This document shows positions 12,091 to 14,780 of a stretch of DNA of 64,000 nt, in pieces (the first letter of the stretch is position 1; every line of letters starts with the position of its first letter). Below the pieces are notes generated by a model. The model did not search any database and was not told where the DNA came from. It was given only the letters and a program-made list of their open reading frames with translations. The DNA is taken from sequence record PZ452578.1; one strand, 5' to 3'. This DNA comes from a phage. Made by a program: the position numbers and the translations under genes.

Positions 12091-12510
12091 TTATTCCTTA
12101 AAATGTGCTTTCAACATCTGATACAAGGACCATGCCTGTTCATTATTTTCAATAGTAACTTTCATTACCGGGAATTCTGTGAAATCTTCTATTTGTTCTT
12201 GCTCTTCCTGCTCTTGTTCTTTAGCATCCTGATATGGATTTTCAACTTCATCAAAGAACCCAGCTTCGTTAGTAGAAAGCCAGATAAAGTTTTCGTCAAG
12301 GATATCACCATGTGTTGCATATCCAACTGTGCCAGTAGATGTCACAATTTTAGTAGGACGACCAAGATAGTCAACATCTAAAATTTTAAAAGGATGCATA
12401 CCTAAACGGCGTGCATAGATTCCGTTATCAGTATGGTCTTTAATAAAATTTTCTTGAGCCTGTTTATTTTTAAATTGATACCATTTATTAACTTCAAATT
12501 TAATAGCCAT
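12091..12510 (-). CDS. hypothetical protein (139 aa)
   Basis: ORF track. Confidence 0.65.
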
Positions 12511-12738: not shown

Positions 12739-13008
12739 TTAATTGAACAGTGGAGCGATACGTTTCAGAAGAGTAGCAGCACCTTTAGCGAATTTTACAT
12801 CATGAAAAACAGTTTCTTCTTCTGTAACAACTCGAACTTTAATATTTTCGCAATCCCAATTTTTGCGAACAATCTTCAAAAGCTGCAGTAAATCTTTACA
12901 TTCAGCAATATCGATAACACATCCACGAGAATCTTCCATTATCGCACGATAACCGTAAGCTATACCATAATCGTTGAAAGATTGCTCGATGATGATTAAG
13001 TTTTCCAT
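12739..13008 (-). CDS. hypothetical protein (89 aa)
   Basis: ATG at 13008 preceded by GGAG; track start is a TTG inside the leader. Confidence 0.6.
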   Translation of the reverse strand: MENLIIIEQSFNDYGIAYGYRAIMEDSRGCVIDIAECKDLLQLLKIVRKNWDCENIKVRVVTEEETVFHDVKFAKGAATLLKRIAPLFN

Positions 13009-13051
13009 TTTATTCTCCAAGTTGTTTTCTATATCAGTAGTTGATATTGAT

Positions 13052-13100
13052 ATAGTACCATAATCAACTACTGATGTATATAGTTTTATGAAAAAATTTT
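13052..13100 (-). promoter_or_regulatory. Degenerate copy of the early promoter-leader cassette (good -10 TGgTACTAT, poor -35)
   Basis: Leader caatatcaactactgata and -10 conserved; -35 region diverged. Confidence 0.4.
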
Positions 13101-13105
13101 AAACT

Positions 13106-13594
13106 TTATGCATAGAGAGCATTGCTATAGTGTTTAATCCAACTTTCAGGAATGACTTTGTATGTTCCTAAAAATACCACGTTGTACAACTTAACGCCAT
13201 CTTCTACCCATTGATCGGTAATGTATCCACACATAGCGCGAGTATAAACAGCCTTTCCATCATCTTTGATAAATTTAAATTCACAAGGAGCAATGAACTT
13301 AATAGCTTGACCGAGTTTCCACTTAAAGTCTACACCTACATGCGAAGTATCAATCGTTTCAATTCCTTTAGCGGGAACAGCTTTCAAAAACGCAGATTCA
13401 AGAAATTTCGCACGAACATAGCCAAACTGAGGTTTAGACTTTCCATCTTTAGGAATGATACGCACTTTTACTTCAGAATCTTCATCTTTAACACCATGTT
13501 TAAGCTGAATGCTTACAATTTCGACCAATTTTCCTGCTGCTTTAGAACGGGATTTATCAGATACACGAGCAATTTCACCAATATTAATAATCAT
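13106..13594 (-). CDS. MotB-position protein (162 aa)
   Basis: ORF track; length matches T4 MotB; C-terminus similar to next gene. Confidence 0.55.
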   Translation of the reverse strand: MIINIGEIARVSDKSRSKAAGKLVEIVSIQLKHGVKDEDSEVKVRIIPKDGKSKPQFGYVRAKFLESAFLKAVPAKGIETIDTSHVGVDFKWKLGQAIKFIAPCEFKFIKDDGKAVYTRAMCGYITDQWVEDGVKLYNVVFLGTYKVIPESWIKHYSNALYA

Positions 13595-13638
13595 AGTTAT
13601 CTCTCACTTGTTAAAAAGATTTTATACTCCACAGGACC

Positions 13639-13675
13639 ATTATACTCTGGCCCCAAGAGTTTGTAAACTATTAAT
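13639..13675 (-). promoter_or_regulatory. T4-type early promoter (GTTTAC / TATAAT)
   Basis: Plus attata 13639-13644, gtaaac 13663-13668. Confidence 0.6.
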
Positions 13676-14210
13676 TCAAAATAGCTACCACTGCACTACG
13701 AGGTACTACACTAAAATCGCCTGCATGAACAACATTCAGAAGTTCAACGCCATCTTCAATCCATTGGTCTGTTACCCAACCACAGACCGAAATAAATGGA
13801 GTCTTGATAGCTACCGCATGAGTTAGAAGGTCAGTAGGATCAACTTCTTTGAAGAGGATAAGCTCTGCTTCAAAAACTATAGTTTTAATTACTTCATCAT
13901 TATCTAAACGTTGTACTCGAATCACGTAAGCTTTATTCTTATCATACCAGTTACTTTTTGAAAAGCTTTTAACCACAAACTCGCCTTCACCAAAAGCATT
14001 AGTCAATGCTTTATAACCCAAATTTAGTTCAGTAGTTTTAATTTCAGTTTCAACCAGTTTGTAGGTTTTGCCGATTTCAATAGCGGTAGTCATAGTAGGT
14101 TCCTTAATTTCCAGTGGTTTAACAGGGCATACATAAGTGCTTACAACATCAAAATCAATCAGTTTAGCTACCGGATTTGGTATGTATTCAGGATTATAAT
14201 TAAATTTCAT
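13671..14210 (-). CDS. hypothetical protein (179 aa), paralog of the 13106..13594 product
   Basis: ORF track; shared C-terminal motif TDQW[IV]EDGV.L.NVV. Confidence 0.6.
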   Translation of the reverse strand: MKFNYNPEYIPNPVAKLIDFDVVSTYVCPVKPLEIKEPTMTTAIEIGKTYKLVETEIKTTELNLGYKALTNAFGEGEFVVKSFSKSNWYDKNKAYVIRVQRLDNDEVIKTIVFEAELILFKEVDPTDLLTHAVAIKTPFISVCGWVTDQWIEDGVELLNVVHAGDFSVVPRSAVVAILN

Positions 14211-14212
14211 AA

Positions 14213-14713
14213 TTATCTCATTTCAATAAAATCTACGAGTTCAGCATGCGATTTGCGGAACATTACTTGATGCCCACCAATGATAACTTCATCTTCAGGA
14301 ACTTCGTATACAGCGAGATAAAATCCTTTAGAAGATAATTCTTCCCGCTCTTCTCGTGTGAACCATCTCATCATATCATATTCGCTAGCGAAACCAAAAT
14401 GATAAAGAGCTATAAACCATCCTGGAATATGATATTCTACTCCAACATAATCTTTCTTGAACTTAGTATTAATTACTATATTAGCGTTTTTAACTAATAG
14501 TTTATCTTCGTGTGGTAAAGGAATTCTTTTATTATTATCGCTATGATGCATAAAATTAGGTCTGTCATAACCTACGTGTAATAGCCACTCTTCGCTCCAT
14601 GAATCTATTATACTTCTATACGGCGTTATTTGAACACAAAGATTTCGACGTATTGTTATAGCATCTTCATAATTAAGAATACTAAACGATGATTCAACAC
14701 GATAAATTTTCAT
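14213..14713 (-). CDS. hypothetical protein (166 aa)
   Basis: ORF track. Confidence 0.6.
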   Translation of the reverse strand: MKIYRVESSFSILNYEDAITIRRNLCVQITPYRSIIDSWSEEWLLHVGYDRPNFMHHSDNNKRIPLPHEDKLLVKNANIVINTKFKKDYVGVEYHIPGWFIALYHFGFASEYDMMRWFTREEREELSSKGFYLAVYEVPEDEVIIGGHQVMFRKSHAELVDFIEMR

Positions 14714-14742
14714 TTTTATTATCCTCAGTAGCTATGGTGTTA

Positions 14743-14780
14743 TAATACCATAACTAACCGAGGAAGTAAACAACTTTTTA
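14743..14780 (-). promoter_or_regulatory. T4-type early promoter (GTTTAC / TGgTATTAT)
   Basis: Plus ataata 14743-14748, gtaaac 14767-14772. Confidence 0.65.

Follow-up and report, generated by a model that had tools for sequence, protein, structure and literature searches.

The motB and motB.1-type genes of a T4-like phage: a homologous C-terminal domain and, probably, different N-terminal barrels

The window considered here (the whole stretch of phage DNA that was analysed, 64,000 nucleotides, sequence record PZ452578.1) is Tequatrovirus DNA, with about 96-97% identity to phages ECO4, VEc74 and CM8 in the DNA comparison, and its segment around motB is matched by 566 phage records. The genes of the locus run in the order goF, cef, a 93-aa ORF, motB, a 179-aa ORF, motB.2 and dexA; when the ORFs of the window are set against the annotated T4 and CM8 regions, the order cef, motB, 179-aa gene, motB.2 and dexA is that of T4, and the 179-aa ORF fills the slot of T4 motB.1. 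Between positions 13106 and 14210 the ORF list contains two minus-strand ORFs, 13106-13594 (162 aa) and 13671-14210 (179 aa), and the features of the locus are as follows.

12091..12510, minus strand: goF, 139 aa, matching phrog_622 at 1.2e-41 and lying 1.2 kb downstream of the 179-aa gene
13106..13594, minus strand: motB CDS, 162 aa, stop codon included, the T4 MotB protein (ORF list, Pfam PF17613, phrog_1671)
13109..13348, minus strand: C-terminal domain of MotB, residues 83-162 (AlphaFold2; phrog_2333 matches 79-152)
13130..13237, minus strand: conserved core of the domain that both proteins share, here residues 120-155 of MotB (BLASTP, hhalign, C-terminal domain alignment)
13391..13594, minus strand: N-terminal domain of MotB, a predicted five-stranded KOW/SH3-like barrel, residues 1-68 (AlphaFold2 model; HHpred KOW motif, PMC7827196)
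13639..13667, minus strand: early-type promoter of motB, TTTACA-17-TATAAT, 11/12 (promoter scan)
13671..14210, minus strand: 179-aa CDS, stop codon included, MotB.1-type gene (ORF list; phrog_2333 at E 1.3e-80; synteny with T4)
13674..13865, minus strand: MotB-type C-terminal domain of the 179-aa protein, residues 116-179 (phrog_1671 at 116-177, Pfam motB at 141-174, AlphaFold2)
13683..13790, minus strand: conserved core of the domain that both proteins share, here residues 141-176 of the 179-aa protein (BLASTP, hhalign; direct repeat)
13866..14093, minus strand: residues 40-115 of the 179-aa protein, predicted to form the N-terminal barrel domain and encoded by the hypervariable part of the gene (AlphaFold2; weak phrog_622 match; DNA divergence from T4)
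14094..14210, minus strand: residues 1-39 of the 179-aa protein, an N-terminal extension that T4 MotB.1 does not have, with predicted disorder
14213..14713, minus strand: motB.2, 166 aa, upstream neighbour of the 179-aa gene and counterpart of T4 motB.2, matching phrog_1106 only
14742..14770, minus strand: T4-early-like promoter upstream of motB.2, TTTACT-17-TATTAT with an upstream TG and a preceding G (GTTTAC), in the dexA-motB.2 spacer

The 162-aa product is, judged by homology, MotB, an identity that the initial annotation had offered as possible for one of the two products: Pfam PF17613 (curated cut-off 25 bits) matches it over its full length, residues 1-162 on profile positions 1-162, with 368 bits and an E-value of 5.8e-111, phrog_1671 matches it at E 7.7e-78, and its DNA is about 97% identical to T4 motB. 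In the AlphaFold2 model (mean pLDDT 81.7), N-terminal strands are predicted at residues 8-11, 23-30, 41-46, 56-61 and 65-67, followed by a low-confidence linker (69-82) and by C-terminal strands at 97-109, 115-131, 134-141, 144-149 and 153-156, the latter with pLDDT 87-95. For T4 MotB, a KOW N-terminal domain, with the motif placed at residues 6-45 by HHpred, and an OB-fold C-terminal domain, potentially DNA-binding, have been predicted (PMC7827196). DNA binding without sequence specificity, copurification of H-NS and StpA and a doubled burst size have been reported for the T4 protein (PMC6070864), an alteration of H-NS footprints is likewise described for it in the literature, and toxicity on overexpression stands beside DNA binding and H-NS/StpA copurification among its known properties (PMC6070864, PMC7827196). 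At about 98% identity, these functional properties should carry over to the 162-aa product. The MotB of the window is basic, with a pI of 9.3.

The 179-aa product matches phrog_2333 at E 1.3e-80, the same PHROG that T4 MotB.1 matches at 1.7e-46, and on profile and position it is assigned as a relative at the T4 motB.1 position, that is, as the local motB.1 allele. Homologues covering at least 80% of the protein occur in 384 phage records, the 179-183-aa allele being common, and the best 120 listed matches are 71-100% identical to it; ECML134_009 (P0072), a protein of 180 aa included in Table S4 of PMC7827196, is 79% identical. The AlphaFold2 model is of low confidence (mean pLDDT 57.9); it predicts an extension with pLDDT 25-32, residues 1-42 being predicted to be disordered, an N-terminal barrel at about residues 43-113 (strands 49-53, 77-85, 94-101 and 106-112 and a helix at 60-73, pLDDT 61-70), and C-terminal strands at 119-122, 132-136, 141-152, 155-162, 165-170 and 174-178. 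The product is acidic, with a pI of 4.9 for the whole protein and of 4.35 for its C-terminal domain, and so are all 120 of the 120 relatives examined (pI 4.6-5.5).

The comparison with T4 divides this gene into two parts. The DNA is at least 95% identical to that of T4 in a stretch that starts at about 13770 and continues downstream over motB and cef, and only 35-48% identical across 13810-14210, the flanks being at 95% or more; given this fall in identity directly beside nearly identical DNA, the N-terminal two thirds of the 179-aa gene is interpreted as a replaced or hypervariable cassette. In BLASTP against T4 MotB.1, only residues 111-151 of the 179-aa protein align, with T4 residues 70-115.

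The two products of the window had been described as sharing a C-terminal block, and both versions are present as quoted in that description: in the 162-aa protein, residues 125-143 read ITDQWVEDGVKLYNVVFLG, and in the 179-aa protein, residues 146-164 read VTDQWIEDGVELLNVVHAG. Pairwise alignment, which had been proposed as a check, gives 18 identities and 26 positives over 32 residues (BLASTP, MotB 120-151 against 141-172 of the 179-aa protein, E 2e-12), a similarity far beyond chance. Pfam PF17613 recognizes the same region of the 179-aa protein (residues 141-174 on profile positions 120-153, 34 bits, above the cut-off of 25), this C-terminal core being the only part that scores and a full-length match, including the KOW-type N-terminal domain, being absent from this product. 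When the MotB alignment (103 sequences) is compared with that of the 179-aa family (119 sequences), hhalign joins the two families with 98% probability and an E-value of 1.7e-13 over 36 columns, and the PHROG profiles match crosswise, residues 79-152 of MotB to phrog_2333 and residues 116-177 of the 179-aa protein to phrog_1671 (E 8.1e-17). In a Mosigvirus MotB.1-type protein, the Pfam motB match covers profile positions 77-153, the whole C-terminal domain, and with such profile matches the C-terminal similarity lengthens to about 62-77 residues. The core, with the consensus GxxTDQWxEDGVxLxNVVxxGxxxVxPxS, is encoded by a 39-nt direct DNA repeat of 77% identity (13193-13231 and 13746-13784); its MotB-type form GWVTDQWIEDGVELLNVVHAG is present in the 179-aa protein, where it differs very little from the core of resequenced T4 MotB.1. 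The order of the C-terminal strands in the 179-aa model mirrors that in the MotB model, and a six-frame profile scan of the 64-kb window finds exactly two copies of the domain, in motB and in the 179-aa gene.

That two unrelated genes should have come by this resemblance through chance or through convergence on a short motif is extremely improbable, even if the strongly conserved stretch is short, at 32-36 residues, and the profile also finds phage tail-fibre repeat proteins, unrelated to the family, in which a similar short motif (SGYATEQWVEDKGY) recurs; the BLASTP E-value, the Pfam score above its curated cut-off, the hhalign probability, the 62-77 residues of the profile matches and the like order of secondary structure in both models all speak against it, all family members keep the motif at one and the same place towards the C-terminus, and the alignment statistics already refute this reading.

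The family defined by the C-terminal domain is narrow. The profile search of 1.84 billion proteins gave 35 clusters at 50% identity, in which the proteins are almost all of 100-250 aa with the domain at the C-terminus, and a C-terminal-domain-only homologue search gave just 4 proteins. The long profile hits P0251-P0253, P0255, P0258 and P0259 were excluded from the family after a check of part of them: three of four long hits scanned against Pfam (P0251, P0252 and P0253) have phage-tail domains, and the sequences of P0251 and P0253 contain a short repeated look-alike motif. MotB-family members of other genera are often acidic, and the median pI of the family is 5.8.

Copy number at the locus, the comparison of which in related phages had also been suggested, is two family genes each in the Tequatroviruses T4, CM8 and DalCa and at least three in Mosigvirus moskry, where the tandem genes encode 164, 175 and 139 aa; Gaprivervirus P479 has MotB and a 251-aa MotB.1-type protein in which the N-terminal module occurs twice. 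Although the P479 homologue has the module twice, we dropped the idea that the 179-aa protein retains, in its extension, what is left of a second such module: an internal repeat test of residues 1-42 against the remainder gave a score of 27, equalled by 15% of shuffles and therefore not significant. Some records name three genes of the motB locus 'transcriptional regulators', and motB.2 was accordingly considered as a third paralogue and dropped: it has no motB hit in Pfam and no MotB-family match among the Pfam and PHROG profiles, and its Pfam SRA hit (E 0.098) and PDB sequence hits (E 0.13 or higher) fall below any threshold. NCBIfam and PADLOC give zero hits for every protein of the locus.

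The 179-aa ORF contains an internal ATG (Met40, 14091-14093) with an AAGGA Shine-Dalgarno sequence, which corresponds to the T4 start and is better placed in this respect than the first ATG, with only a weak GAG; T4 is devoid of DNA for the first 39 codons. The annotated ORF might thus be too long, in which case translation would begin at Met40 and give, as in T4, a product of 140 aa, codons 1-39 being an untranslated leader, and further points that would fit are the predicted disorder of residues 1-42, the annotation of one cluster of relatives at 140 aa (P0108) and a promoter-like site at 14221..14193 from which a transcript would begin between both ATGs. This site is, however, no better than chance expectation, and a start at Met40 is held to be unlikely. 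Residues 16-39 lie, in frame, inside the 111-residue BLASTP alignment with the P479 homologue (53% identity overall) and inside the longer P479 ORF, positions 1-54 of the phrog_2333 profile cover the N-terminal extension, and the frame is open in 118 of 118 relatives of at least 170 aa. Codons 1-39 are 100% identical in DNA in DalCa and CM8, and counting of synonymous and non-synonymous changes is thus uninformative. Because residues 16-39 are conserved in P479 and the extension is included in the phrog_2333 profile, the long ORF is accepted as the likely product.

Each of the two genes had been credited with an early promoter of its own, which is supported for motB only. The 76-bp spacer upstream of motB contains TTTACA-17-TATAAT (11/12), a site identical in T4, and the annotation of phage DalCa places a promoter in its own motB.1-motB spacer; motB would be transcribed from this early promoter. 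The 179-aa ORF starts 2 bases past the stop codon of motB.2, without a spacer, and the nearest T4-early-like promoter, GTTTAC...TGgTATTAT at 14770..14742, lies upstream of motB.2; because of this position and of the 2-base gap, the 179-aa gene is probably co-transcribed with motB.2 from the promoter at 14742..14770. The promoter-like sites in the region number 13, against a shuffle expectation of 14.0 +/- 4.3, and internal sites of this kind therefore carry no weight.

Between the N-terminal domains of MotB and of the 179-aa protein, hhalign and the PHROG profiles detect no sequence similarity. The MotB N-terminal domain matches its own family, phrog_1671, and no other in the PHROG profiles, the GoF family included, and the N-terminal barrel of the 179-aa protein and its relatives aligns with positions 2-91 of phrog_622, the GoF family; these matches are weak, with E-values of 0.12 for the 179-aa protein, 0.0022 for the P479 homologue and 0.0013 for T4 MotB.1, and all are colinear. 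The N-terminal domain of MotB.1 has been placed in an LSm-like/SH3-like family together with GoF and Frd.2, and an RNA-related activity of MotB.1 was not found (Kim et al. 2025, PMC12152347). With both models, Foldseek against the PDB retrieves 53BP1 tandem Tudor, tandem Agenet, SAWADEE, Spt5 KOW and IF5A at weak E-values of 1e-3 to 1e-2; in the whole-model search, IF5A (of OB-fold type) is at rank 25 with E 1.6e-2, and tandem Tudor, Agenet and SAWADEE rank higher. Since the same weak matches are retrieved by both, the two proteins look, in their models, like two small SH3-like barrels in series. A PDB sequence search with the MotB family profile gave zero hits. Against BFVD, the 179-aa model retrieves MotB.1 relatives, T4 P39415 and a 163-aa 'transcriptional regulator', which we take to be MotB-type, aligned over 172 columns with E 5.8e-5; the full-length alignments have TM-scores of 0.25-0.28.

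Taken together, these data are best described by a partial duplication or a domain shuffle, a reading to which we assign a probability of about 0.85, in which motB and the motB.1 allele share the C-terminal domain and carry different N-terminal barrels. The locus would then consist of two adjacent early genes, each encoding two beta-barrel domains, with one homologous C-terminal domain common to both; MotB would have a basic KOW/SH3-like barrel at its N-terminus, and the 179-aa protein a probably disordered 39-residue extension followed by a GoF/MotB.1-type barrel, so that the N-terminal domains would be unrelated or no longer recognizably related. Of the tandem paralogy proposed in the initial annotation, homology of the C-terminal domains is thus retained, and the N-terminal domains show no detectable similarity in sequence; likewise, the supposed diverged duplicate is a relative through its C-terminal domain, and a duplicate of the whole gene is unsupported, the homology extending from 36 columns in hhalign to about 77 residues in Pfam. 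A tandem duplication of an entire two-barrel gene, in which the N-terminal barrel diverged past recognition and no GoF-like domain was swapped in, seems to us somewhat unlikely, even though several observations would agree with it: the two-domain layout is identical, both models retrieve the same tandem small-barrel folds, the 179-aa model aligns over 172 columns (E 5.8e-5, Foldseek) with the putative MotB-type protein of 163 aa, a PSI-BLAST search started from MotB reaches the close relative ECML134_009 with a query coverage of about 0.8 (PMC7827196, Table S4), and three or more tandem family members in Mosigvirus and Gaprivervirus imply that the locus does duplicate. The low TM-scores of the full-length Foldseek alignments (0.25-0.28) weaken the structural part of this argument, the hhalign match spans just 36 C-terminal columns, and the N-terminal domains go to different families, that of MotB to phrog_1671 only and that of the MotB.1-type proteins, colinearly, to phrog_622.

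The T4 reference sequence differs from other T4-type records within motB.1, reading ATGGATTGGAAG in AF158101.6 (= NC_000866.4) where the others read ATGGATTGAAG. The extra G is missing from 11 resequenced T4 records, T4T, RB55 and RB59, at least 13 other T4-type records in all, and it is the sole difference between the reference T4 and MT984581 over 560 nt. Within the conserved core, this additional base causes a frameshift and leaves a MotB.1 of 119 aa that ends in ...GGWVTDQWIGRWR followed by a stop; without it, MotB.1 has 143 aa and ends in ...EDGVELLNVVHAGEYSVVPRSAVVAILN. The 143-aa T4 MotB.1 passes Pfam PF17613, and the 119-aa form, whose conserved domain is short of its final 28 residues, has no hit to this profile. 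On these comparisons, the T4 reference annotation of motB.1 is probably wrong by one base. MotB.1 is given as 13.8 kDa in a study in which constructs were made by gene synthesis and amber constructs cite NC_000866.4 coordinates (PMC12152347), and 13.8 kDa is the mass of the 119-aa form, from which it follows that the MotB.1 expressed by Kim et al. probably lacked most of the conserved core. The probable reference error bears on experiments with the 119-aa construct.

The relationship between the two proteins is not new. For T4 MotB and MotB.1, a common conserved C-terminal domain with different N-terminal domains has been described (Patterson-West et al. 2021, PMC7827196); the same work suggests that one of motB and motB.1 may be a duplicate of the other, and it lists 40 other phage genomes with both genes and further categories with other N-terminal domains (PMC7827196). 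The window adds one more allele to this published relationship, and its value as a discovery is small, since the variability of the N-terminal domains and the differing copy number in Tevenvirinae have been published as well. The locus is, in turn, a clear small example of domain-level mosaicism in the hyperplastic early region of T4-like phages. The annotation of the 179-aa ORF should be MotB.1-type, with a MotB C-terminal and a GoF-like N-terminal domain; support is absent for the names 'adenylribosylating enzyme' and plain 'transcriptional regulator'.

Regarding function, the acidic character of the 179-aa protein (pI 4.9), against the basic character of MotB (pI 9.3), leads to the expectation that it would not coat DNA as MotB does, an inference that is weak, given how often acidic MotB homologues are met with in other genera. 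The shared C-terminal barrel could serve as a protein-contact module, for self-association, for binding to MotB or for a common host partner, and the variable N-terminal barrel of the 179-aa protein would then give a separate ligand specificity. More speculatively, and with a chance that we regard as distinctly low, the acidic MotB.1-type protein might use the shared C-terminal barrel to partner or antagonize either MotB or a host target common to both, H-NS being one example, and such an activity could have gone unnoticed in the published assays of MotB.1, since these were done with the 119-aa form. Deletion of motB.1 in T4 has no laboratory phenotype (Kim et al. 2025, PMC12152347), and a partial redundancy of full-length MotB.1 with MotB, if true, would explain mild single-mutant phenotypes.

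Among known systems, T4 MotB is the closest to the 162-aa product, which is about 97-98% identical to it, with few substitutions; the flanking genes and the upstream promoter are alike, and there is no material difference. The 179-aa protein has its counterpart in T4 MotB.1 (phrog_2333; UniProt P39415), an early protein encoded between motB.2 and motB, with which it has the slot and the PHROG in common; both proteins are acidic, and there is next to no difference in the C-terminal core or in the DNA downstream of it, whereas the N-terminal allele is different and the protein of the window alone has the 39-residue extension. [quoted passage not shown] The tandem small beta-barrel readers, namely 53BP1 tandem Tudor, plant tandem Agenet, SAWADEE and the Spt5 KOW repeats, are the best structural matches for both models, although these matches are weak (E 1e-3 to 1e-2, TM 0.2-0.5) and devoid of sequence similarity, in agreement with a resemblance in fold class only.

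The motB.1 gene of the T4 reference genome (NC_000866.4, locus L002) carries one additional G at about L002 position 2297, or position ~7297 of the record, which is absent from 11 resequenced T4 records and from T4T, RB55 and RB59 (compare L003 and L004). The extra nucleotide shortens the annotated T4 MotB.1 from 143 to 119 aa, with the break located within the conserved C-terminal core, and through it the Pfam motB match of this protein is lost; the MotB.1 of the published expression work is reported as the 13.8-kDa (119-aa) form (Kim et al. 2025, PMC12152347).

Outside Tequatrovirus, MotB-family proteins were found at two further loci:

L007 1255-2010, MotB.1-type protein of 251 aa in Escherichia phage P479 (Gaprivervirus)
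L008 1195-2645, three tandem MotB-family genes of 164, 175 and 139 aa in Escherichia phage moskry (Mosigvirus)

The P479 protein is composed of two tandem N-terminal modules followed by a MotB-type C-terminal domain, and the three moskry genes, which are placed after dexA, indicate that the copy number at the motB locus differs among genera. In Escherichia phage BYEP01, a protein of 43 aa (P0232) joins the N-terminus of MotB.2 (MKIYRVESSFSILDYED) to the C-terminus of MotB.1 (GVELLNVVHAG...), a fusion that is evidence for a deletion taking out most of motB.2 together with the N-terminal domain of MotB.1.

The motB.2 gene itself (14213-14713, minus strand) gave a weak, sub-threshold Pfam match (E 0.098) to the SRA (SET and RING associated) domain, which binds modified cytosine, and other evidence provided no further support for this domain; the match is curious in a phage whose DNA contains hydroxymethyl-cytosine. 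In the GenBank records of SH7, W143 and IsaacDaniel, the label "adenylribosylating enzyme" is attached to the 179-aa ORF or to a co-listed neighbour, a name for which the present searches gave no support. Two tail-fibre-like proteins retrieved in the representative search, P0251 and P0253, combine a phage tail tip domain with repeats SLSGYATEQWVEDKGYLTEHQSL that are similar to the MotB core SMSGYITDQWVEEGVKLYN, a likeness that is probably a short-motif coincidence.

Two features lie between motB and cef:

12739-13020, minus strand, 93-aa ORF of unknown function (phrog_3720)
13030-13078, long inverted repeat with 23-nt arms, directly downstream of motB

Folded as RNA, the inverted repeat reaches -21 kcal/mol (z-score -6.1), no U-run was found 3' of it, and it may serve as a hairpin for RNA stability or processing and not as an intrinsic terminator. 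In T4, the repeat is present in nearly the same sequence, with one mismatch across the stretch, and ~215 bp of the 93-aa ORF are deleted, so that just both of its ends remain.
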